Shown: one piece after another, positions 5,569-60,758 of the stretch
How positions within the stretch are numbered: the stretch's first letter is position 1
Layout of the letters: each line of letters begins with the position of its first letter
Assembly (NCBI GenBank): GCA_020635855.1
Contig: JACJYZ010000003.1
Span: forward strand, 49,937 to 113,936
Direction: 5' to 3'
DNA: 64,000 nucleotides
DNA from: Flavobacteriales bacterium
Lineage (GTDB): Bacteria > Bacteroidota > Bacteroidia > JACJYZ01
Translations under genes and position numbers: made by a program
Notes under the pieces: generated by a model
The model's input: only the letters and a program-made list of their open reading frames with translations
The model's database searches: none
Told to the model about the DNA's origin: nothing

Positions 5569-6144
5569 TTATTTGGATGAATGCCTGCCCAACATCCAAC
5601 CGATCCCGAAGGTCAGGCGGTTCGGCTCGGACAGTTTGGCACCGCTTCCGGGAGAAAGTACCAACCCTTCGTAATGAGCATACAACATAAGCCGGTGAAT
5701 GCGAAGTGCCGGTCCGACCTTATAACCGACCCCGTCTTTGCGAATGGAAAGGTTGTTGTTCAGGTCGTGGTCAACGGCGAATATGCGGTTGTAGGTGGGG
5801 CCGCCTTCAACGGACAGCGGTCCGAGCAGGTGAAGGCCTACCATCACCGGGAACTGAATACGGTGCAGGGTGATGTGGGCGTTGTTGTCGTTGTTCACCG
5901 TACCGGTACGGAACAGGTACAGGGCTTCGGGTTGCAGGTAAATGCCGTTCATGTCGAGCCGGTAGAACAGTCCGGCTTCCATGCCGGTGATCTGGTTGCC
6001 GCTGATGAAATCTTTGAACGAATCATATTGGAGGCGGATGTTTCCGTTGCCGGCACCGGCTTTGATGCCCAGGCCCGATTGGGCATTCACTGCAGTGAAT
6101 GTGCCCAGCAACAGGATGAGGGATATATATCGGATTTGTCTCAT
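5569..6144 (-). CDS. Small outer-membrane beta-barrel protein (OmpA-like/porin family)
   Basis: Signal peptide MRQIRYISLILLLGTFTAVNAQ. ~170-aa mature part with alternating amphipathic strands and an aromatic-rich C-terminus, as in Bacteroidetes OMP_b-brl proteins. Confidence 0.6.
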   Translation of the reverse strand: MRQIRYISLILLLGTFTAVNAQSGLGIKAGAGNGNIRLQYDSFKDFISGNQITGMEAGLFYRLDMNGIYLQPEALYLFRTGTVNNDNNAHITLHRIQFPVMVGLHLLGPLSVEGGPTYNRIFAVDHDLNNNLSIRKDGVGYKVGPALRIHRLMLYAHYEGLVLSPGSGAKLSEPNRLTFGIGWMLGRHSSK

Positions 6145-8922: not shown

Positions 8923-9486
8923 TCAGTATTCATACCTGTACTTCCGGGTTTGTTTCAGGGTGCCGTTTCCGTCGTATGTTTTCTTCTCGGTTTTCATGCC
9001 GTACTTGTCATACGTAAAAACAACTTTTTTGATCACCTTTCCTTCTGAATCATACGTCGTCTCCTGGGTTTTCTCTCCCATGGCGTTGTACGAGAATCCG
9101 GTTTTTTTCACCACGTTGCCCTTCCCGTCGTAGACCGTTTCCAGCTTGGGATCCTTCCCGTTGTATTCGGTGGTTTTGCGTTCTGCAACGGCGCCGGTTT
9201 CATCGTAGGTCACCTCCTCCACCTCGTCGTTGTTCTTGTTGTACTTGTGAGCTTTCTTCTCCTTCAGGCTGCCGTCTTTTGCGTATTCTTCCTTGGCGGT
9301 GACATTGGCGTTGGCATCGTATTTCTTAAACGACTCCGTGTGCTCTTTGTCCGTGCCGGCATCCACCACGGTAACGGTCACCGACCGGATGTGCAGTTTC
9401 TTCACATCCTTCTTGCTTTGTGCAAACACGTGACCGAAGGAACAGCAAGAAAGTGCGATGCAGAGATATAGGTATATGTAGCGCAT
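8923..9486 (-). CDS. Repeat lipoprotein (tandem ~23-aa TYD...G...K repeats)
   Basis: Signal/lipobox-like MRYIYLYLCIALSCCSF. At least 6 tandem repeats of the pattern (T)EYxxxG/KxxKKTxYDxxGxV. ATG at 9484-9486; the longer ORF start uses an upstream in-frame M. Confidence 0.5.
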   Translation of the reverse strand: MRYIYLYLCIALSCCSFGHVFAQSKKDVKKLHIRSVTVTVVDAGTDKEHTESFKKYDANANVTAKEEYAKDGSLKEKKAHKYNKNNDEVEEVTYDETGAVAERKTTEYNGKDPKLETVYDGKGNVVKKTGFSYNAMGEKTQETTYDSEGKVIKKVVFTYDKYGMKTEKKTYDGNGTLKQTRKYRYEY

Positions 9487-15110: not shown

Positions 15111-15248
15111 CAATAAGATACAAAATGTTAACAGAAGTTTAATTTGGGGTGGCCGAAAAATGAAGGGCGGATATGCCAACGTCGCGGAATGCCCGTTGGG
15201 GCATCAAATTCACCCGATGGGGTTTTCGTATCACCCGATGATTTTTTT

Positions 15249-15318
15249 GCTGTATGCTGTATGCTGTTGCCGTATGCTTGCCCGCCGTAGCCTTGGCGAA
15301 GGAGGGCTGTATGCTCAC
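15249..15318. repeat. GCTGTATGC-type repeat element with 26-nt core CCGCCGTAGCCTTGGCGAAGGAGGGC
   Basis: gctgtatgctgtatgctgttgccgtatgcttgcccgccgtagccttggcgaaggagggctgtatgctcac. The same core recurs at 22864-22889. Confidence 0.7.
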
Positions 15319-16008: not shown

Positions 16009-16044
16009 TGTTACTCTTGCAGTATGCTGTATGCTCTTGCAGTA
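16009..16044. repeat. GCTGTATGC-type repeat element (ctcttgcagtatgctgtatgctcttgcagtatgctt)
   Basis: Direct reading. Lies immediately 3' of the DUF2200 gene. Confidence 0.7.
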
Positions 16045-16047
16045 TGC

Positions 16048-18634: not shown

Positions 18635-19057
18635 CTATTCAGGATCAAAAGCCACCATCCATTCAATGCCGTACTTGTCCCTGAACATACCAAAACAGGA
18701 ACCGCCGGGGCTTTCTTCCATGGGTATTTCAACCTGTCCGCCTGCCGAAAGTCCGTTGAATAATCGGACGGCTTCTTCTTTGCTTTCCGCGGTGATGGAA
18801 ATTTTGCTTCGGTTTTCGTTTTCATTCGTTCGCCCCATCATTTCCGGAACATCATTGGCCAACAAAAAGTTTTTTCCAATGGGCAAGGCAATGTGCATGA
18901 TCTTGTTTGCCTCATGTTCCGGTACCTGGAATTCCGGACCTGCCAGGTCTTTGAACCGGACGATTTTCGCGAACGCTCCGCCGAAAACGGATTGGTAAAA
19001 GGTAAATGCTTCCTCGGTATTTCCATTGAAGTTAATGTGGGGATTGATCTGTGCCAT
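18635..19057 (-). CDS. VOC/glyoxalase-family protein (PhnB-like)
   Basis: MAQINPHINFNGNTEEAFTFYQSVFGG...MHIALPIG...GGSCFGMFRDKYGIEWMV is the typical VOC/3-demethylubiquinone-9 3-methyltransferase-like pattern. Confidence 0.65.
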   Translation of the reverse strand: MAQINPHINFNGNTEEAFTFYQSVFGGAFAKIVRFKDLAGPEFQVPEHEANKIMHIALPIGKNFLLANDVPEMMGRTNENENRSKISITAESKEEAVRLFNGLSAGGQVEIPMEESPGGSCFGMFRDKYGIEWMVAFDPE

Positions 19058-19190
19058 TGTGTTTGTTGGTTGTTGATGTAATACCAATTCTTGAGTGGTG
19101 CCGGTCGGTAAGCGGCGCTGTGGAATGACTACCAGCTCGCGTAAGTGCGCATTGCGGTCATGCGTATACGTTTGCTCTTACCGAATCTTG

Positions 19191-19236
19191 CCCCTCAATT
19201 TCGTTGAAAATGTAAGTAAAAAAGCGGAAAGGGATA
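19191..19236. repeat. Left imperfect direct repeat flanking the R-M island
   Basis: cccctcaatttcgttgaaaatgtaagtaaaaaagcggaaagg compared with cccttcaattaccctgaaaatgtaagctaaaaaaccggaaaac at 22371-22419 (about 33 of 40 identical; cores TGAAAATGTAAG, TAAAAAA and CGGAAA shared). Confidence 0.65.
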
Positions 19237-19360
19237 TGGGAATTTTATGATTTGGTTTAGTGGTGATGAGGTTCTGGCCCGTACCATTGTTCTGATGTTA
19301 ATAAGTATTTGATTCCACCATGGATTTACGCTCTCCGAAATTCTATTTTTGTTCGGAGAG

Positions 19361-20644
19361 ATGGGAGCGAAATACTCGGACATACGCAGGAAGCTCAACC
19401 TTCCTGAACTTAACGGAACCCCCAACGGTTCTGCTTACCTTACGCATTACTGGCAGGGAAATAATGAACGTATCAGGAGTTATTTCAAGGACGAAGCCCT
19501 GGAATATCTGGAGACAATTGTGGAAGACCCGGCGTTCAATTACGAACTGCCGCTTGAATATGACGTTCCGTTTCCTCCTCCAGCACGACCTTCCTTTACA
19601 TTCATCGACCTGTTCGCGGGGATAGGTGGGTTTCGTATTGCATTTCAGGAAATGAACGGTAAATGTGTATTCAGTTCGGAATGGGATAAGTACTCTCAAA
19701 AAACCTATGAAGCCAACTTTGGTGAAATACCGTTCGGTGACATCACCAAAATTGACGAGAACAAGATACCAGAGCACGACATCCTTTGCGGTGGTTTTCC
19801 CTGTCAGCCGTTCAGTATTGCCGGGGTATCCAAAAAGAACAGCCTGGGCCGGAAGCATGGATTCGAGGACGAAACCCAAGGAACTTTATTCTTCGACATC
19901 AAGCGTATTATTAAGTCCCGGAAACCAAAGGCATTTCTCCTGGAGAATGTAAAGAACCTTCGGGCGCACGATAAAGGCAGAACCTTCGAAGTAATTGAAC
20001 GGAATCTGAGAAATCTGGGGTACATGGTATTCAGTCAGGTGCTGGATGCGAAATACTACGTTCCTCAGCATAGAGAACGAATCTTTATAGTAGGTTTCAG
20101 CAAGGAACATTTCCCCAAAAACCTCGTGTATAAGTTCCCGGAGCGGCCTGCTGAGCAGCCGCTATTCAAAGAAATTCTTGAACGAAATCCCAGTGAGAAG
20201 TACACACTGTCTGATCATTTGTGGAACTATCTCCAGGATTACGCAGCTAAACACAAGGCAAAAGGAAACGGATTCGGATTCGGACTGACTGACCTTAATG
20301 GTGTTGCCCGGACTTTGAGCGCCCGGTATCACAAAGATGGTTCAGAAATCCTGATCCCACAGAGAAACGGAAGTAACCCTCGTAGGCTGACTCCGGAAGA
20401 ATGCAAAAGGTTGATGGGATACCCGGATCAGTTCAGAATCCACGATACAGGCGTTTCGGATACACAGCTTTACCGGCAGTTTGGAAATTCAGTCGTTGTA
20501 CCGGTAGTACATGCTGTTGCTGCAAGCATACTGGATGTTTTCCGTCAATATGAAAGACAGGAGGAACGCCAGAAGCAAAGGGAAGCTCTACTGAATGGTA
20601 GGCCGTCAACGACACAGGCCATCAGCGCACGATCTTCTGAATAA
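19361..20644 (+). CDS. dcm: DNA (cytosine-5)-methyltransferase (Dcm-like)
   Basis: Motif [12 protein letters not shown]. Motif [31 protein letters not shown]-terminal [10 protein letters not shown]. The ORF-track start at 19349 is TTG; first ATG at 19361. Partnered with vsr. Confidence 0.9.
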
Positions 20645-21038
20645 GCTTTTTGAGGGTAATATCTCTTTTCTTCTTCATCAGATCACATTCCCACACGGTA
20701 ATGATTTTCCAACCACTTCTTTTTAGCTGAGTGCAGCTTTCAGCGTCCTTGGCCTTGTTGCGGTTGATTTTGTCCAGCCACCACTGGGTACGAGTCTTCG
20801 GAACAACAAAGTACCTGCACCCGTCATGACCATGCCAGAAACAGCCATGAATAAAGATTACTGTGTTGTGTTTTTTCAGGATGATATCAGGCTTTCCAGG
20901 CAGGAGCTTATCGTGTAACCGGTAACGGAAACCGTTTGCATGAAGAAACCGGCGTACGAGCATTTCGGGTTTTGTGTCCTTGCCCCTGATCCGGCTCATG
21001 TTGTATGAGCGTACTTCAGGTTCATGAACATCAGTCAT
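20622..21038 (-). CDS. vsr: Very-short-patch repair endonuclease Vsr
   Basis: HGCFWHGH motif and [12 protein letters not shown]. 138 aa. Overlaps the convergent dcm 3' end by 23 nt. Confidence 0.9.
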
Positions 21039-22249
21039 CAGATTTGTTGTTGTTTTTCCCGAACTACATCAATAAAATCAGAAAGTGTTATCAGGTGCGC
21101 ACGTTGTTCTTCGGTGTACGTTTCCATAAGTGGTTGCGGAAGCACAAGCTGTAGATTTTGGGCAATCATTTCATCCGTTTGGTTTCTGCTTATAGCAGGT
21201 TCCAGTGTAATCAGATGTTTGTTGTTAATCCGGTCAGCTTCAGCCAAAACCTGCCGCCACCGTTCTTTTGCAGAAGTTTTTACGCCAAGCATGGTCAGCA
21301 ACTGCGCAGTAAAATCTGCATTGTGATAATGGTCTATACCGGGAAAAAGAAAATCAGGCTTATTATTCCGTTCTGTTTTTGCACCCTTTGCATATTGAAT
21401 TCCACTGGCATCAAAGATATGCGCCAAATGATTCTCAAAAGCAAAACCTGCTCTTGATTTTCTTCTATTCTGAACGCTTAAAGAGAAGGAAATAAATTCA
21501 TCCACATCGGTTCCCTGTGCACCGAAACCCTGTTGCAATTTTTTGGCCACTATGTGCTTTTCGAGCGTTTTAAAAAGCAGTTCTTCCCGTTCTAGCCAAG
21601 CCATCAGGGTATCGTCAGGTTCTTCAATAGGAGATACGTCTGTTAGTGTCGAGCGTGCATAAGCAGAAAACTGGGCAGTTGTTGGGAAGCCCACACCAAA
21701 CAAGTTTATTAGCTGTTCAAGAAAATCGGGCGCAGTGTCAGGCACTTCAAAGCCCAGTGATGTAATAATGTATTGCCCTGCGAAGTTCAGTTGTGTATCT
21801 GCTCCGGTAAAGTCACGAATAACAAATTTTGAACCCGCTTCCTCAAGACCGAAAAGCCATAGTAGCTGCTGCTCGGATGTGGAACCTTGCGGGGCAACAA
21901 TTACTGCCAGTTTGTTTTCACCGGTTTGTCCAATTACGACCAGGTCACCGGCAACCGCTATATCAATGACTGGATTAGTAGAATAGTAAAGTCGATATTC
22001 GGTTCTTGAGGGGTGATTCTCTCGGGCATCGTACCATGTTAGTGTTCCGGATTCTTTAATAATTTGTTCTTCGTCATCAGTCAGGTAAATAAAATGTCCC
22101 TGAAAGTTGATTCTCTCTGAACCGAAGATTTCCCTAAACCCGGATATACCATTGAATTCATGTTGATTGGAAACATCCGGAGCTACTTCAACATCACTAA
22201 GTCTTTTTGCTCCGATTCCAGTGAAATATTGTGATAATGGACTTGGCAT
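21038..22249 (-). CDS. EcoRII-family (type IIE) restriction endonuclease
   Basis: 403 aa. C-terminal half aligns by eye to EcoRII as recalled from memory (VDEFISFSLSVQNRRKSRAG...NKKPDFLFP...ERWRQVLAEADRI versus EcoRII VDEFIALANSVSNRRKSRAG...NKKPDFLFP...DRWRQILNEADKI). N-terminal domain shares KRLS.../YY motifs of the EcoRII-N effector domain. Confidence 0.8.
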   Translation of the reverse strand: MPSPLSQYFTGIGAKRLSDVEVAPDVSNQHEFNGISGFREIFGSERINFQGHFIYLTDDEEQIIKESGTLTWYDARENHPSRTEYRLYYSTNPVIDIAVAGDLVVIGQTGENKLAVIVAPQGSTSEQQLLWLFGLEEAGSKFVIRDFTGADTQLNFAGQYIITSLGFEVPDTAPDFLEQLINLFGVGFPTTAQFSAYARSTLTDVSPIEEPDDTLMAWLEREELLFKTLEKHIVAKKLQQGFGAQGTDVDEFISFSLSVQNRRKSRAGFAFENHLAHIFDASGIQYAKGAKTERNNKPDFLFPGIDHYHNADFTAQLLTMLGVKTSAKERWRQVLAEADRINNKHLITLEPAISRNQTDEMIAQNLQLVLPQPLMETYTEEQRAHLITLSDFIDVVREKQQQI

Positions 22250-22370
22250 AATTGATTACAAATGTACTTTTTCAAACGAATAAATTCTAATTGTCTGCAG
22301 ATAGAGGAGCAAGCGATTTTGCAGGTTTACCGGAGGTCATGCAGAAATTGCTTCCCACAAAACTTACACG

Positions 22371-22419
22371 ATTTCACCCTTCAATTACCCTGAAAATGTA
22401 AGCTAAAAAACCGGAAAAC
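22371..22419. repeat. Right imperfect direct repeat flanking the R-M island
   Basis: See 19191-19236. Confidence 0.65.
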
Positions 22420-22477: not shown

Positions 22478-22575
22478 CAGCATACGGCATACAGCAACAG
22501 CATACAGGGTAAAACAACCAGTGCAGGAAGGCTTACGCAACGCACTGTATGCTCTTGCCCTTGCTCTTGCTCATT
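22478..22575. repeat. GCTGTATGC-type inverted-repeat element
   Basis: Left arm cagcatacggcatacagcaacagcatacagg ... right arm tgtatgctcttgcccttgctcttgctc. Same family as 1-75, 15249-15318, 16009-16044 and 60541-60758. Confidence 0.7.
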
Positions 22576-22700
22576 CCAGGATTGCTCCCTCCGGTCGCGG
22601 ACCTCAAAGGGGGAGCTTTACAAGCAAACCCCAACCCTTGCTGCGCCGGGTTGTTTTTTTGTTTTCAAGCCTTGCTTACAAGCAAGCTTGACGCAGGCCT

Positions 22701-22740
22701 TGAAAACAAAAAACCCAAACCTGAAAAAGGTTTGGGTTTC
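22701..22740 (-). terminator. Rho-independent terminator downstream of tRNA-fMet
   Basis: Minus strand reads GAAACCCAAACC-uuuuuca-GGUUUGGGUUU followed by UUUGUUUUC. The 11-bp stem begins immediately 3' of the tRNA. Confidence 0.7.
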
Positions 22741-22744
22741 CTAG

Positions 22745-22817
<73 letters not shown>

Positions 22818-22835: not shown

Positions 22836-22857
22836 AGCGAGCTATCAACTGCTCCAC
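22836..22857. repeat. Partial duplicate of the tRNA 5' half (gagctatcaactgctccac versus gagctaccaactgctccac at 22789-22810)
   Basis: Direct reading, 19 of 21 identical. A tRNA-fragment duplication of this kind can be a remnant of site-specific integration or excision at the tRNA. Confidence 0.5.
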
Positions 22858-23010
22858 TTTTACCCGCCGTAGCCTTGGCGAAGGTGGGCCCGCATCTGTA
22901 TTCAAGATCTTAAGAACGAATCCTTACCGGATGATACTTCGAGAAAACTGTTTTCCGAAGTGGGTGCAAAGTAACACAAAATTAAAGACACGTCAAAATA
23001 CACAACGCAT

Positions 23011-24816
23011 TTAGAGCGGTGTACGCCCGGCATTGACGGAACGGCGCAGGTTTGAGGTGAACTCACCGAAGTCGGTTTGGATGATGCCTTTCTGACGGAG
23101 CTTCTTCATGATCTCTTCCGGCGTGCCCACGTCCGTAATACGGCATTGGTTCCGCGGATTTGCGGTGGAGAGGTTTCTTATGTCATGCGCATCTACCAGC
23201 CCGAGGCGTCCGTCATTCATCACCAGCACCACGATGGATGGATACACCTTGGTCAGTTTCATGCGATGCACGTCATTGGGCACCACGCCCCTCGGGAAAA
23301 GGTACAGTGTGTACGATTTGCGGATGGGCAGTTCATCGTTTCCGGGAGATACGTATTGTGTCACGTATTCTTCCTGTCCTTTCAATACCTGGTCGCAATT
23401 CCACAGTCCCAACCGGTCGGCGGAAAACGTTCTGCGTACCAGGTAGTCGGTCTCAAGGGCGGTGCCCCTGTTCTTTTCACTCAGGATCTCTGCCACATTC
23501 GGTCCGGGTACAATGCCTGCCTTGGCGCCCTTGTAATCGCGGTAGAGGTCCCCACAGGTTTTGTCGGCATAGGGTCCATCCAGCGAGGGGAACAAACGCA
23601 CCGATACCTGGCTGGCAATCTCGCTCCTGGATGAATCCGGTTCCAGGCCGTTGTTCTTTTTCAGGAAAACCAGGGTGAGGTAATCCGTGGGGACGGACAC
23701 ATCATAGGTCACCTCCACATAGTCCCAGAACCGGTAGATGTAGTTGCCACCTTTGAAATCATTGGCCAGCAGAGATTCGAAGAATTCCAGGTCCTGTCCG
23801 GGTTCCTGCACCGATTGGTCGTAATGCCATGCCAGTCCGCGCAGCGCAGCAAAACCCCGGTTGCGCCATTCGATGTTGGTGAAGGTGAAGTCGTAGGATT
23901 TTCCCGCTTTGGAATGCCCCTTCTTTTTGAACCGTTTGATCACGGGTTTGTAGTTCACCAGGTTCTGCACGCCGATCCCCAGGGCCGAATCCGCTTCCAG
24001 AGGAGTGATGGTACTTGCCGTTGCGGCATCCGTCCGCACATCTCCGCGTTCATTCGTCCGGTCGGAGGTTTTGGTTGTCACCGGTTCTTCGGTGTTTTCA
24101 AATACCGTTACGTTGTCTTTGCCTTCAAGCGTCCACAGGCTGCGCTGCTCATCGAGGTGGTACAGGTTGAATGCGGTTTCGCTTTGATCCGATACCATGT
24201 CCACTTCAATGGCTTTTCCAGGTAGCATCTGCAAGGGGTTGTCATTCATGTCGAATGCGCGGATCTCCATCATGCCCGCTGATACCAGGGACATCCGCTC
24301 ACCCAGGGTGTCGTACTCCATGGGTACACCACCGGCAAACACCGATAGGGCATCGTGGAATTCACGGTACTTTAAAACCACCTTGCCGTCATAGACGCGG
24401 GATGAAGCATCCAGGAACGCACCTGCAGGAATGTGCAATACCGTGCCCGTGCTGTGTGTGATCTCTGCGCCTTTGCTTGCCTCCAGGGTATAGGAACCGA
24501 ACGGCACGTCCCATGCTGAAACGGGTGGCTTGAGACAGGCCGGAATGCTTTCGGCAGAGGAGTCAACCATGGCAACTACCGCCTTATCTGTAGGCAGGGT
24601 TTCAGGTGTACGATGCATTTGGGTGATCAGCAAAACGACCCCTGCGCTCAGCGCCAATCCGCCCAACACAACTTTGGCCAGGGATGAAAGGCCTTTTCCT
24701 TTCGGGGTGCCTGCTTGACCCTGGGCCATGGTCCGGTTCACCAGCGAATCAAAATTCATGGTTGAATCCACATCCGCTTTGCCCGGCATTTTTCTGTTCC
24801 TGATGATTTTATTCAT
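23011..24816 (-). CDS. Membrane-anchored protein co-transcribed with an ECF sigma factor (putative anti-sigma/sensor)
   Basis: ATGA overlap with the sigma gene stop (24813-24816). Cytoplasmic N-terminus of about 55 aa, single TM LAKVVLGGLALSAGVVLLI, then ~530-aa extracytoplasmic domain without recognisable family motif. Confidence 0.45.
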   Translation of the reverse strand: MNKIIRNRKMPGKADVDSTMNFDSLVNRTMAQGQAGTPKGKGLSSLAKVVLGGLALSAGVVLLITQMHRTPETLPTDKAVVAMVDSSAESIPACLKPPVSAWDVPFGSYTLEASKGAEITHSTGTVLHIPAGAFLDASSRVYDGKVVLKYREFHDALSVFAGGVPMEYDTLGERMSLVSAGMMEIRAFDMNDNPLQMLPGKAIEVDMVSDQSETAFNLYHLDEQRSLWTLEGKDNVTVFENTEEPVTTKTSDRTNERGDVRTDAATASTITPLEADSALGIGVQNLVNYKPVIKRFKKKGHSKAGKSYDFTFTNIEWRNRGFAALRGLAWHYDQSVQEPGQDLEFFESLLANDFKGGNYIYRFWDYVEVTYDVSVPTDYLTLVFLKKNNGLEPDSSRSEIASQVSVRLFPSLDGPYADKTCGDLYRDYKGAKAGIVPGPNVAEILSEKNRGTALETDYLVRRTFSADRLGLWNCDQVLKGQEEYVTQYVSPGNDELPIRKSYTLYLFPRGVVPNDVHRMKLTKVYPSIVVLVMNDGRLGLVDAHDIRNLSTANPRNQCRITDVGTPEEIMKKLRQKGIIQTDFGEFTSNLRRSVNAGRTPL

Positions 24817-25639: not shown

Positions 25640-28600
25640 ATGTGTAAAAAATACCTTTTATCCCTCCTTTCGTGTTTTGTCGGATTCGGAGCGTTGTACG
25701 CGCAAACCGGCCCCGGAGGTGTTGGTGATGCATCAACGAACATCGTTTGGCTGAGGGCCGACGATCTCTCTGCCAGCCCCGTGTCTGCCTGGTCAGATCA
25801 GTCGGGCAATGGCAATGACATGTCGCAGGGCAATGCCACCTATCAACCCACATGGGTGGATGGGGTTTTGAATGGCAAACCCGTGCTGCGCTTCGACGGT
25901 GCCAATGATGATCTGGATGGGCCCGCTACCAATACCCTTCTTGGCGGAGGCATAGATGACATTACCATCATCACTGTTTTTCGTACTTCCTCCTCTTCCA
26001 AGGGGTACCTTTCGGCATTGAAAAGAGATGGTGGTACCAGTTCGCTGTATTCCATTGACATCAATTCAAACGCCGGATCGGGTTCCGGAGGTTATGCCGG
26101 ATACGTAACCAGGAATGACGCCAATTCAGCTCACAACTGGATTACTTACAACGGTGGGTACAATGATGGCGGTGGCCACATCCTGGTGGGATGGGTCAAC
26201 GGTGCAAATAAAGAACTTTTCATGGACGGAACTTCCCGTGGTACCGATGCGAACGGGATGCAGAACATTTCCTCGAACACAGGATTGTTTACCATCGGCG
26301 GTTCGGCTGCTGCAAGCAACAACTACAACGGGGACGTGGCGGAATACATCATGTTCACCTCCGCCATCAATGATGCCCAACGCATCATTATCGAAAACTA
26401 CCTGGCCTCCAAATACGGCCTCACCATTGCCAATGATTATTTTACCAGCGATGCTACACATTCCAATGAGCTGGCCGGTATCGGACAGGAAGATGCATCC
26501 AACATACACGCGGATGCCGAATCCGGGGGTGTCCTGGAGGTGAGTTCTCCCTCGGATTTGGGCGACGGTGAATACCTGCTCTTTGCACATGACAACGGTT
26601 CCATTGCCGCATGGACCACCACCGAGGCACCTCATGCAGGCGACAACATGCAACGCCTGACCCGCGAGTGGATCATGAATGAGACGGGTGATGTGGGTAC
26701 GATCACCGTTACAGTGGACAATACGCTTCTTCCGGCACTCCCGGCTGAATATACCGATTACTACCTTCTGGTGGATGACGACGGGGATTTTTCCAGCGGC
26801 GCTACCGAATACCTGCTGAGTCCCGTTGGAGGCAGCGACTATCAAGCCACAGGTGTGGATGTAGCTGACGGAAGCTATGTCACCATCGCTGTGGTGCGGC
26901 CGGAGATCGACTTTACCATTACCGCCGATGACGATTTCGAAACGGCGGGCGCCGTCAATATTCAGGTTGAACTGAATTTCGCCATCAGCTCGGATGCAAC
27001 GGCGGTCTTTACGGAGAACGGCGGAAGCACCGCCACATCCGGTGCATTGAATGATTACACCCTCTCTGCAGGTCCGGTTACCATATCGGCAGGTACCACC
27101 ACAGCCAATATAACCCTTACCCTGAATGACGATGTGGACCTGGAAGATGACGAAACCGTGATCCTGGATCTCAGCGGACCCACTGTGGCCCAACTCGGAG
27201 ATGACGTTCAGTTCACCTATACCATTCACGATGATGACAACCCGAGAAAAGTAGGATTCACCGCGGCGGGTTCTTCGGGCGATGAAAGTGTGAATCCGTT
27301 CAGTCTGACCGTGCAGAGTACCACTGCCAGCTCATCAGACATCACCGTGAACTATACCGTAACAGGTGGTACCGCCACCGGGGGAGGAGTTGACTATACC
27401 CTGGCCTCCGGCACCGCAACCATTCCGGGTGATAATTCGAGTATCTCCACCACCATCGATATTGCCATTAATGAAGATATTTTGGATGAGGTGGATGAGA
27501 CCATCGAGATCACTTTATCCACGCCCGGCAATTGCAACCTGGATGCCGGGAATACAGTCTACACATACACCATAACAGATAACGACAATCCTCCGGTTGT
27601 CCAGTTTTCCTTCACCACAACCGATGCTTCTGAAGCGGTAAGCCCGGGGCAGGTGGAAGTGTCGTTATCCGGCATCACCGGGCAGGATGTTCAGGTTTCC
27701 TATACGGTGGCGGATGGTACGGCGACAGGAAGCGGATCGGATTATACCCTGGCAGATGGTACCCTGACCATTCCGGCGGGAAGCACATATGGTTACATCA
27801 CACCAGTGATCGTGGACGACAGCAACATCGAGCCTTCCGAAACTTTTACCATCACTTTGTCTGCCGGTCCTACCAATGCAACGCTGGGTGCGAACACGGT
27901 GAACACCTATACCATAGGCGACAACGACGACACCGGATTCACCGGACCCGGAGGGGTGGGAAATGCAACCAACAATGTGTTGTGGCTGCAAGCCGATGAC
28001 CTGTCTGCAAGCCCGGTTTCTTCCTGGGCGGATCAATCCGGTAACGCCAATGACATGAGTCAGGGCACAGGAGGTTATCAGCCGTTGTGGGTGGATGGCG
28101 TGATCAACGGCAGGCCCGTGATCCGTTTCGACGGCAGCGATGATGTGCTGAATGGCACAGCATCCAATACATTGCTGGGAGGCGCCATCGAAGACATCAC
28201 TGTGCTCACGGTTTTCAGGACGTCCTCTACCTCCAGGGGATACCTGTCGCAGTTAAAACGTGATGGGGGTACCAGTTCCCTCTATTCCATCGATATCAAC
28301 TCAACCGGGGGCAGTGCAAGCGCCGGGTATGCCGGTTTTCTAACCAGGGATGATGCCAATGCCAACCACTACTGGCTGGATTACAACGGGGGTTATAATG
28401 ACGGTGATGGTCACATCCTGATAGGATGGGTGGATAACGCCAACCGGGAATTATTCATAGACGGTACCTCGCGCGGAACCGATGCCAACGGCATGCAAAG
28501 CGTATCCAGCAACACCGGGGCCTTCACCCTTGGCGGAACTTCATCCGGTGGAACCCCATACACCGGAGATGTAGGGGAGTACATCATTTATACCATGGCG

Positions 28601-31600
28601 TTGAACAGTGCCCAGCGAATCATTGTGGAGAATTACCTGTCATCCAAATACGACATTGCGGTGGCAAACGATTATTACAGTCACGATGTGTCGTATGAGG
28701 AAGACGTAGCGGGTATCGGCCGGGAAGATGCATCCAATGAACATACCGCTGCTCAGTCGGCCGGTATACTGAAGGTCTCAAGTCCATCCGGAATGGGTGA
28801 CGGAGAGTACCTGTTGTTCGGTCATAACAATGGGTCAATTGCTTCATGGACCACCACGGAAGCCCCCAACTCGGGAACCAACATCCAACGTCTGGCCAGG
28901 GAATGGCAGGTAGATCAAACAGGAAATGTGGGTACCGTTACGGTTACCGTTGATTCCACATTGCTGCCCGCCCGCCCGTCCGAATACTCAGAGTATTTTC
29001 TTCTGGTGGATGGCAACGGTGATTTCAGCAGCGGTGCCACCCAGTACAAGATGAGCAATGTCAGCGGCGCCAACTTTGAAGCTTACGGTGTGACACTTGC
29101 CGACAACGATTACATTGCCATTGCGGTGAAGCGCCCGACCATAGGGTTCACACTTGCAAGTTCAGGAACCTTCGAACCCAATGGTCCCGCAACCGTGCAG
29201 GTTCAACTCAACATGGCGCTGGCCCATAACGTTACCGTTGACTATGCCGTCAATGGCAGCAGCACGGCAACCGGTGGAGGAGTGGATTACACCTTGTCGG
29301 CGGGAACCGTAACCATTACAGCAGGTAACACCACGGCCAACATCAACATTCCCCTGGTGGATGACATCCTGGTTGAGAATTCCGAAACGATCATCCTGGA
29401 ACTTTCCAACCCTTCTTCGGGAATCACCCTCGGAACCAATACCACCCATACTTTCTCCATCAACGACGATGACAATGCGCGCAAGATCAACTTCACCGCA
29501 TCGTCCTCTTCAGGTGCGGAAAGTGTGAATACGGTTACATTAACGGTACAGGCAACCACGGCCAGTTCATCCGATATCACGGTGGATTACAGCGTGACGG
29601 GCGGTACAGCCACCGGCGGGGGAACCGACTATACATTAACCAGCGGCACGGCCACCATCCCCGGCGATAACTCAAGCACTACCACCACATTCGATATCGC
29701 CATCAACGAAGATGTCCTGGATGAAGATGACGAAACCATCATCATTACCCTCACCAATCCCACCAACGGAAACCTGGCTGCCACCAACACATCCTACACC
29801 TACACCATTACGGACAATGACAATCCGCCGGTTGTTCAGTTCACCAGCACCACTACCAGTGCTTCGGAAGATACAAGTCCGGGAGCCATTGAGGTCAGTC
29901 TTTCCGCCCCATCAGGTCAGGATGTGGTCGTAAGTTATACCGTTGCCGATGGTACAGCCACGGGCGGTTATGTGGATTACTACCTGGCCGACGGCTCACT
30001 GACCATCCCCGCCGGAAGTTCCGTTGCCAATATAGGTCCGGTCATTGTTGACGATGCCAATGTGGAGGGAGGGGAAACATTCACGGTGACTTTATCCGCC
30101 GGTCCGACGGGCGCCACATTGGGTGCGAATACCACCAATACATATACCATCAGTGATAATGACAATGCGATGGGCTTCACAGGCCCGGGTGGCGTTGGTG
30201 ATGAAGATGACAACGTGCTGTGGTTACGTGCCAGCGACCTGTCGGCAAGTCCGGTTTCATCCTGGACGGACAAGTCGGGAAACAGCAACGACATGAGCCA
30301 GGGAACAGGAGGATACCAACCCACATGGGTAAACAGCGTGATGAACGGACAACCGGTGATCCGGTTCGACGGCAGTGACGATGTGCTCAACGGGGCTGCC
30401 TCAAACACGTTGCTTGGAGGGGCAATTCAGGATGTTACCACTATCACGGCTTATCGTACAAGTTCCACACAACGAGGTTATTTATCGGCATTGAAGCGAG
30501 ATGCCGGAACCAGTTCGCTCCTTTCCATCGACATCAACTCGAACGGAGGAAGTTCGAGCACCGGGTATGCGGGTTTCTTATCCAGGGATGATGCCAACGC
30601 GAGCCACCAATGGCTCAACTACAACGGTGGATATAACGATGGAAACGGTCACATCATGGTGGCATGGATTGATGATGCCAACCGTGAATTGTTTATGGAT
30701 GGAACATCCCGCGGCACCGATGCCAACGGCATGCAAAGCGTATCCAGCAACAGCGGTACGTTCACCATAGGCGGGGCAGCATCCGGAAGTACCCCGTACA
30801 GTGGTGACGTAGGGGAGTATATCATATATACAAAAGCCCTGAATTCCGCGCAGCGTATCATTGTCGAGAACTACCTTTCATCCAAATTCGGAATTGCGGT
30901 CGCCACCGATGTATATAACAAGGAAGCCCTGAGTAAGTATGAGGTGGCTGGTATAGGTCGCGAGGATGTCAGCAATCAACACACCGCCGCCCAGTCGGCC
31001 GGTATTCTCAAGTTTTCAAGTGCTTCCGATCTGGGTGACGGTGAATACCTGTTGTTCGGTCATAACAACGGATCAGTGGCCTCATGGACCACCACTGAAG
31101 CACCCAACTCCGGTACCAACATCCAACGACTGGCCAGGGAATGGCAGATTGCGGAAACCGGCGATGTAGGTACCGTCACCATCACCGTGGATACGACTTT
31201 ATTACCCGCCCGTCCTTCCGGCTATTCGGTATACACCGTACTTGTGGACGCCGATGGTAACTTCAGCAACGGCGCTACCCAGTACAAAATGACCCAGTCT
31301 TCCGGCGCCAACTTTACCGCCACGGGTGTGGATGTATCCGATGGCAATTTCGTGGCAATTGCTGTTGTTCGTCCGGTGATTCAATTCTCGAACACCATCA
31401 GCAGTACCTTCGAACCGAACGGGCCGGCCCTGGTTCCGGTTACCCTGAACTACGCCCTTCAGTCAAACGTTACGGTTGATTATACCATCACCGGGGGAAC
31501 GGCAACGGGGGGAGGCACCGACTATGTTCTTTCCAACGGTACCCTGACCATCACCGCAGGTAATACTTCTGCCAATATCAGCATCACCCTGGTGGATGAT

Positions 31601-60540: not shown

Positions 60541-60758
60541 CAGCATACTGCAAGAGCTACAGCAACAGTTCGCCGTAGCTTTAGCGGAGCAACCATACAG
60601 CAAGAGCATACAGTGGGAGGTTTCCCGGACTGTATGCTCTTTTGTTTTGTTCTATGTTAAGTCTTGTATTGAGCCTCACACTTGCTGTTGCTGTATGCTG
60701 TTGCAGTATGCTGTTGCGGTATGCTCTTGCAGTATGCTCTTGCAGTATGCTCTTGCTC
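60541..60758. repeat. Largest GCTGTATGC-type inverted-repeat element
   Basis: Left arm cagcatactgcaagagctacagcaacag. Core ttcgccgtagctttagcggagcaacc. Right arm gctgttgctgtatgctgttgcagtatgctgttgcggtatgctcttgcagtatgctcttgcagtatgctcttgctc (about 11-nt tandem units). Confidence 0.75.

Follow-up and report, generated by a model that had tools for sequence, protein, structure and literature searches.

A chimeric EcoRII-type restriction, methylation and repair cassette between imperfect direct repeats in a Flavobacteriales chromosome

Gene content of the cassette

In a stretch of 64,000 nucleotides from a Flavobacteriales bacterium (metagenome-assembled genome GCA_020635855.1, contig JACJYZ010000003.1; hereafter the window, meaning the whole stretch of DNA that was analysed), two imperfect direct repeats enclose an interval of 3132 bp (19231-22362) that, according to the list of open reading frames (ORFs) and a Pfam scan, holds three genes alone: those of a Dcm/M.EcoRII-like C5 cytosine methyltransferase (M), a Vsr T:G mismatch endonuclease and an EcoRII-like restriction endonuclease (R) (Table 1). 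All three were found intact by family matches, in keeping with the complete EcoRII-type triad claimed in an initial annotation of this DNA, and they are indeed delimited by the repeats as had been stated there. With moderate confidence, this interval is taken here to be a horizontally acquired, recombinant type II restriction-modification (R-M) cassette of the EcoRII type, which would have entered without a recombinase of its own and with duplication of about 54 bp of its target. The genes are arranged as R->Vsr<-M, the R stop codon and the vsr start codon sharing the sequence TGATG and vsr overlapping the 3' end of M tail-to-tail by 23 nt, as read in the sequence, and Vsr is taken to be translationally coupled to R via the TGATG overlap. 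In the proposed division of labour, M would guard the sites of the host, Vsr would mend the T:G mismatches that result from deaminated 5-methylcytosine and R would most likely cut unmethylated CCWGG while a second site is held by its B3-like N-terminal domain, as in EcoRII; both the enzymatic activities and the CCWGG specificity are predictions from sequence.

Table 1. Features of the cassette and of its surroundings, in window coordinates (loci fetched for comparison carry L numbers).
Feature	Position	Strand	Evidence and remarks
VOC/glyoxalase-family protein (140 aa), left host neighbour	18635-19057	-	PF06983/PF00903
Left direct repeat, putative target duplication	19177-19230		Local alignment against shuffles
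62-nt spacer between left repeat and first L257-homologous base	19231-19292		No homology to M-upstream regions of other modules
9-bp perfect inverted repeat abutting the M ATG	19331-19339 / 19352-19360	+	Sequence, repeat search
C5 cytosine methyltransferase M, Dcm/M.EcoRII-like (427 aa)	19361-20644	+	PF00145 E=5e-94; TIGR00675; NF007772
Vsr T:G mismatch endonuclease (138 aa)	20622-21038	-	PF03852; TIGR00632
Recombination breakpoint	21015-21016		Sliding-window identities, informative sites
EcoRII-like restriction endonuclease R (403 aa)	21038-22249	-	PF09019 E=8e-70
R upstream region, module-borne	22250-22353	-	TACATTTG box at 22259-22266, 9 nt before the R ATG; alignments to L014, L016, L103, L104
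Right direct repeat	22363-22417		Local alignment against shuffles
Dispersed 13-nt tandem repeat family GCATACWGCAAS, host intergenic	22478-22575		Repeat matches in the window
Two stem-loops directly 3' of the tRNA	22655-22739	-	RNA fold -59.3 kcal/mol
tRNA-Met(CAT) with initiator features	22744-22817	-	ARAGORN; Rfam 67.5 bits
20-nt copy of tRNA positions 7-26, 19/20 identical	22838-22857	-	46 nt upstream of the tRNA; E=8e-4

The catalytic EcoRII-C domain of R, of the PD-(D/E)XK type, spans residues 226-393, and PF09019, whose cut-off is 25 bits, is matched at 234.7 bits. When R was compared with PDB sequences using phmmer, EcoRII was matched over residues 186-393 only, with E of about 1e-40 for both 1na6 and 3hqg. 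Segments of EcoRII retained in this alignment include FENHL (for LELHL), KPDFLFP, VKTSAKERWRQ (for VKTTCKDRWRQ) and EADR (for EADK), which we take to carry the EcoRII catalytic residues. For the first 185 residues, no Pfam family and no match among PDB sequences, EcoRII-N included, was found. The description of R as closely matching EcoRII, given in the initial annotation, thus stands for the catalytic domain and fails for the N-terminal part at the level of sequence. However, an AlphaFold (AF2) model built from 30 homologues, with a predicted local distance difference test (pLDDT) value of 85.8, was matched by Foldseek to full-length EcoRII (1na6, E=7e-25), to its catalytic domain (3hqg, template-modelling (TM) score 0.85, with 41% identity in 218 columns) and to EcoRII-N (3hqf, E=3e-5, TM 0.54), with further matches to the B3-like domains of BfiI, LlaJI.R1 and plant ARF. 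Because of these matches, R is modelled with the two-domain architecture of EcoRII, which it resembles in its catalytic domain by both sequence and fold and in its predicted B3-like N-terminus, and from which it differs in an N-terminal domain whose sequence shows no recognisable likeness to EcoRII-N. The effector-type domain, about 15% identical to EcoRII-N in the structural alignment, is recognised at the level of the predicted fold only. For annotation this would mean that members of the R family listed with just the EcoRII-C Pfam domain are two-domain enzymes of the EcoRII type, with an effector domain that sequence profiles do not pick up.

As to the recognition site, phmmer places R much nearer to EcoRII (E=1e-40) than to Ecl18kI, which recognises CCNGG (E=2.5e-4), and on this ground homology favours CCWGG. 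The avoidance of CCWGG that the initial annotation had suggested computing is not seen in the window, where 257 such sites correspond to an observed/expected ratio of 1.08 under a maximal-order Markov model. This ratio says nothing about activity, as a host with protected sites has no need to lose them and as Vsr offsets their loss by deamination.

M is 47% identical to Dcm of E. coli, with motifs I, IV (GFPCQPFS), VI (ENV), VIII (QxRxR), IX and X aligned and with the segments KY.L...LW.YL..YA.KH.A.GNGFG and RTLSARY.KDG.EILI of a Dcm-like target-recognition region shared between the two proteins. Ahead of the catalytic domain M bears an N-terminal extension of 78 residues, in which a Pfam scan detected no helix-turn-helix (HTH) or other DNA-binding family. 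Vsr exceeds the cut-offs of its families (PF03852, 113 bits against 27; TIGR00632, 142.8 bits against 97.85). With its E. coli counterpart it shares 40% identity and the motifs GKPD and HGCFWHGH, which are conserved around the active site of the latter. The likeness to the Dcm-Vsr pair of E. coli hence extends to both proteins, while the arrangement differs: the E. coli vsr gene runs in the direction of dcm and overlaps it, whereas in the window vsr is linked to R and convergent with M. A further difference from EcoRII and from E. coli Dcm-Vsr is that the host belongs to the Bacteroidota and that the genes carry promoter boxes of the Bacteroidetes type. These boxes correspond to TAnnTTTG, which we take to be the Bacteroidetes -7 promoter consensus, and the arrangement TAnnTTTG-N9-ATG occurs exactly twice in the window, at the start of M (19344-19363, plus strand) and at the start of R (22247-22266, minus strand), a spacing not seen at host genes of the window. 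Given this arrangement at both starts and the conservation of the boxes in related modules, the M and R transcription units probably each bring their own promoter and give rise to near-leaderless mRNAs.

Upstream of M, the 9-bp inverted repeat pointed out in the initial annotation is present, and its 12-nt loop contains the TAnnTTTG box (19344-19351), 9 nt upstream of the M ATG. In the module of locus L257, described below, the loop with its box is identical and the arms are complementary at 4 of 9 positions, although the M N-terminus is identical at 75 of 78 positions between the two, so that the operator that had been surmised is not borne out as a conserved one. Perfect 9-bp palindromes number 11 in the window against about 4 in shuffles, counted per 9-mer. 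Autoregulation of a promoter by the methyltransferase has been described for M.EcoRII (Som & Friedman 1994) and M.SsoII (Karyagina et al. 1997), both as cited in PMC3874152. The M of the window is similar to these in having an N-terminal extension and a palindrome straddling the putative -7 box, and differs from them in the loss of the palindrome arms in L257 and in the lack of any DNA-binding family in the M extension. The palindrome bracketing the box has the geometry of an operator and is at most a candidate for one, the idea being unsupported. A further candidate role, in which the inverted repeat acts as an RNA hairpin (fold of -13 to -16 kcal/mol) occluding the M start, is doubtful, as transcripts from the putative M promoter would not include the left arm, which precedes the -7 box, and the arms are not conserved.

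Horizontal acquisition and chimerism

The horizontal acquisition of the cassette is well supported by its composition, by the occurrence of the module in at least six unrelated contexts and by the contrast between its identity to counterparts in a relative and that of flanking genes. The interval between the repeats has a GC content of 44.6% and R one of 42.7%, as compared to a mean of 51.8% for the window; sliding segments of 3.1 kb average 52.4 ± 1.5% with a minimum of 48.0%, making the cassette interval the lowest in the window. Of the neighbouring genes, that for the VOC protein has 47.5% and that for a 611-aa protein 54.4%. The low GC content noted in the initial annotation is thus confirmed, but the contrast with the flanks had been overstated, the value of 56% given for them being too high against the mean of the window. 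The R->Vsr<-M unit is found with 73-78% nucleotide identity in at least six unrelated contexts (L014/L015, L016-L019, L020/L021, L103, L104 and L257), and five of these six modules have a GC content of 42-44% whether the flanks of their host have 38% or 52%, the exception being the L257 module with 51.7%. The latter belongs to the assembly GCA_020435415.1, which offers the most telling single comparison: its M and Vsr share 90.9% and 89.8% identity with the window proteins, whereas its homologues of the window sigma factor and of a 601-aa protein are 50.5% and 34.3% identical, and its module is situated on a different contig and in a different context.

Members of the R family are widespread, with 457 matches in species-representative genomes that include Bacteroidota, Proteobacteria, Firmicutes, Nitrospirae and Calditrichaeota, and with 18 full-length matches on IMG/VR viral contigs, 14 of them with the whole triad. 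Among the 80 best genome loci, the gene order of the window is found in 13 and co-directional orders in 40. In locus L257 (1-12840; JAGQZQ010000050.1), which holds the nearest relative of the window M and Vsr, the module abuts a helicase-like gene and is followed by a series of same-strand ORFs without Pfam or PHROG match. A PHROG search beside this module returned just a weak helicase match and no sign of a phage-borne copy.

A point missed in the initial annotation is that the cassette is chimeric, with M and Vsr tracing back to one lineage of the module and R to a second. Between 19293 and about 21015 the nucleotide identity is 76-91% to L257 as compared to 45-79% to the group of L016, L103, L014 and L020, and from about 21016 to 22353 this relation is reversed, with 76-92% identity to that group as compared to 52-75% to L257. 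The same reversal is seen in the proteins, for which the identities of M, Vsr and R are 91, 90 and 62% with L257 and 68, 78 and 89% with L016. A single breakpoint between 21015 and 21016 fits 644 of 754 informative sites and is located within the first eight codons of vsr, beside the R stop codon. The two lineages would have been joined by a crossover at this R-stop/vsr-start junction, and the sharpness of the breakpoint suggests a route by which toxin and antitoxin might be exchanged between systems of the same specificity.

Boundaries of the module and mode of insertion

The two copies of the direct repeat are 54-55 nt long and identical in 45 of 56 aligned columns (~80%). Their local alignment scored 51, whereas 1000 dinucleotide shuffles of both intergenic regions gave 18.7 ± 2.2 and at most 30, and the resulting z of 14.6 is to be set against a maximum of 7.3 among 65 control modules. 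The imperfect repeats of about 40 bp that the initial annotation had placed at 19191-19236 and 22371-22419 are hence real and significant against shuffles, and slightly larger than had been thought. Both copies are spanned in three independent assemblies (L003, L004 and L005), so that the pair is not an assembly artefact. The 12-mer TGAAAATGTAAG of the repeat core has just two occurrences in the window, both within the repeats, and searches of the window, of other fetched loci totalling 2.16 Mb and of IMG/VR yielded no third copy, not even a weaker one.

On the right side, homology to L014, L016, L103 and L104 covers a conserved segment of about 100 nt upstream of R and ends at 22342-22353, that is 10-20 nt inside the right repeat. 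On the left side, homology to L257 begins at 19293, at a distance of 62 nt from the inner end of the left repeat. The matching position in L257 is occupied by the stop codon of the unrelated helicase-like gene; the five other modules share an M-upstream region of another kind, which has no counterpart in the window. Since the homology between modules ends 10-62 nt inside the repeats and a repeat of host type is reached by 22478, the repeats closely bracket the imported DNA. No integrase, transposase or other mobility gene was found between or beside them in the ORF list and the Pfam scan. The cassette may have entered the intergenic region between the VOC gene and the initiator tRNA gene (tRNA-fMet) without a recombinase of its own, and its insertion would have duplicated about 54 bp of the target, the copies having since diverged to their present identity. 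That the repeats mark the insertion and arose as a target duplication is plausible. This origin we infer, because no empty site was found. The 611-aa flank protein has no relative in GTDB species-representative genomes, and its best homologue, 34% identical, lies at a locus (L002) with neither tRNA nor synteny. Exact-protein look-ups for R, Vsr, the VOC protein and the flank protein gave only occupied contigs, 99.9-100% identical, and a comparison of the VOC protein with JGI metagenomes gave 80 loci (76-84% identical), none of them syntenic. The contigs resembling the window at 99.9-100% identity come from a second NCBI metagenome-assembled genome (GCA_020435405.1), from Logan assemblies of five runs and from four ENA assemblies. 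Logan contigs ending at 22773-22791 were considered as a sign of population heterogeneity, and these ends were attributed to tRNA sequence common to members of the metagenome.

Several observations weigh against this account of the cassette. The 62 nt at 19231-19292, on the left, match no related module. The comparison that would define a target duplication, a single-copy empty site, was not obtained, the lineage being too thinly sampled. A flanking repeat is absent in 64 of 65 related modules. The copies are about 80% identical, as compared to 93-98% in the published cases (PMC2853133), and this low identity implies either that the insertion is old or that the copies were never identical. As regards function, the CCWGG specificity is derived wholly from homology, the M family itself being unable to tell CCWGG from CCNGG, and CCWGG is neither depleted nor marked in the window, which thus carries no genomic signature of activity.

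Two other views of the repeat were rejected. It is not a terminal sequence carried by the module, as it is absent in all related modules, in the 2.16 Mb of fetched loci and in IMG/VR, and flanking repeats are not a general trait of the family, since just one of the 65 modules, L117, has such a pair. In L117 (Aquimarina sp., CANLEM010000003.1) an R->Vsr<-M module is accompanied by a direct repeat of 30 nt, identical at 27 of 30 positions, at 5743-5772 and 8974-9003, whose sequence is unrelated to that of the window repeat.

A cassette that landed by chance between pre-existing local repeats or copies of a regulatory motif, or that brought one copy along with the incoming DNA, is an unlikely explanation, yet one with some points in its favour. 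The modest identity of the copies would fit it, the genome contains dispersed intergenic repeat families of which one adjoins the locus, and the minus-strand sequence TACATTTT within the repeat resembles TAnnTTTG and lies 120 nt upstream of the VOC gene and 114 nt upstream of R. "Chance insertions between repeated sequences" also form a recognised class in Furuta et al. (PMC2853133). However, no third copy was found in the window, the 2.16 Mb of fetched loci or IMG/VR; the lack of the repeat sequence in related modules shows that it is not module-borne, and the proximity of the repeats to the ends of inter-module homology is not predicted by chance.

That the repeats are attL and attR of an integrative island, inserted by a recombinase at tRNA-fMet, is highly improbable. 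It draws on the distance of 326 nt between the right repeat and the 3' end of the tRNA, on a tRNA fragment nearby and on the finding that about 4 of 61 modules, the window included, lie within 500 nt of a tRNA, where roughly 1% would be expected by our own estimate. The initiator tRNA and its 5' fragment reported in the initial annotation are both present, the fragment matching positions 7-26 at 19 of 20 nucleotides. Nevertheless, neither an integrase nor another gene for mobility was found between or beside the repeats, which contain no tRNA sequence, no copy of the tRNA 3' end was found at the far boundary, and the fragment, a 5' piece, is situated upstream of the tRNA gene, which thus separates it from the cassette. 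The claim of an inserted mobile defence cassette thus holds as regards horizontal acquisition, is plausible though unproven as regards the repeats as marks of insertion, and is not supported in its link to the tRNA. The related modules L129, L167 and L168 are about 250-450 nt from tRNA-Asp, tRNA-Lys and tRNA-Leu, respectively. Counted with the window, they are a faint indication that variable regions near tRNA genes receive modules of this kind, but no evidence that the integration seen here was directed by a tRNA.

Vertical inheritance of three ancestral genes, with low GC content and repeats as incidental features, could appeal to the finding that every assembly of the population has these genes in an unchanged context and 99.9-100% identical, and to the lack of a known empty site, but it has very little to commend it, given the lowest GC content of any 3.1 kb of the window, the location of the module elsewhere, on another contig, in GCA_020435415.1 as the only other sampled relative, the identity of about 90% for its M and Vsr against 34-50% for the flanking homologues, and a closest relative of R that differs from that of M and Vsr.

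Relation to known systems and host surroundings

As a system the cassette belongs to a kind of element that has already been described, and as a mode of insertion it probably does so as well. In Burkholderia phage KL3 a module of EcoRII-C endonuclease, Vsr and EcoRII methylase has been reported, with the roles of cutting, protection and repair proposed for its members (Lynch et al. 2010, PMC3091744). Both modules are compact and made up of these three protein families, that of KL3 residing on a mobile element; however, the KL3 genes M, Vsr and R are co-directional inside a prophage, whereas those of the window have the order R->Vsr<-M in a chromosomal intergenic region with no phage genes nearby. 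For the mode of insertion, the accessible part of Furuta, Abe & Kobayashi 2010 (PMC2853133) recognises a target duplication by an insert of less than 20 kb with R and M inside and no other mobile-element gene, by a flanking repeat of more than 30 bp that is not dispersed, and by an empty site in a related genome; the cases given there include inserts in H. influenzae with 46-bp repeats, and repeat identities are 93-98%. The window agrees with these inserts in that R and M are together within less than 20 kb, with no mobility gene and with a repeat of more than 30 bp that has no copies elsewhere in the searched data. It differs in that theirs rest on the empty site of a sister genome, whereas here no such site was found, and in the identity of about 80% between its repeats. 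The taxa named in that part of the paper are Proteobacteria, a cyanobacterium and an actinobacterium, while the host of the window belongs to the Bacteroidota.

A broader view, tentative and rather doubtful at present, is that the family moves between Bacteroidota chromosomes without a recombinase, duplicating tens of target bases as in the window and in L117, and re-assorts R against M-Vsr at the R-stop/vsr-start junction. If this is true, hybrid systems could arise with their specificity kept, the junction would constitute a defined hotspot for the swapping of R and M between modules, and R-M insertion with long target duplication would reach beyond the taxa named in the accessible text of Furuta et al. 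If the target duplication is true, the Kobayashi-type concept of R-M genes as mobile elements without transposase would extend to another phylum. The current understanding of R-M biology is unchanged by the cassette, which documents an imported R-M-repair system of two lineages in a poorly sampled Flavobacteriales lineage, present in several metagenome runs.

With respect to the host surroundings, the VOC protein recurs exactly in independent assemblies of the same population, and the 611-aa protein adjoining the locus is identical to the NCBI protein H6585_08615, encoded on a contig of 891 kb. The sequence of tRNA-Met(CAT) contains A11:U24, a stack of G29-31:C39-41 and a 1:72 mismatch, which we take to be features of an initiator tRNA. 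Of the two stem-loops directly 3' of it, the tRNA-proximal one (22711-22739) leads into a T-run and is terminator-like. An Rfam match to MIR837 at 22620-22745 was discarded, as it is far under the gathering threshold and reflects the long hairpin. The repeat element placed near the tRNA in the initial annotation corresponds to the 13-nt family GCATACWGCAAS, which is unrelated to the direct repeat of the cassette and yields 15 matches, where 0.87 would be expected, spread over five intergenic sites (22-59, 15246-15277, 16016-16047, 22478-22575 and 60543-60750). This family is often accompanied by CCCGCCGTAGCCTTGGCGAAGG (15278-15307 and 22860-22889), and pieces of the family are found on both sides of tRNA-fMet.

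Over 13.7 kb compared between the window and GCA_020435405.1, 9 of 13 differences fall within 41 nt (24577-24617) of the gene for the 601-aa protein, and two adjacent differences lie inside vsr (20836-20837). In locus L002 (8460-10852; JAGQZQ010000086.1 of GCA_020435415.1), where the window 601-aa flank protein has its homologue, genes for an unrelated Bpu10I-like endonuclease, for an N6/N4 methyltransferase and for an HTH protein lie at a distance of 6 kb from that homologue. Further along the window, a very large gene for a Calx-beta/DUF8202 surface protein contains internal repeats (~27257-29077 and 29492-31315) that are about 72% identical.

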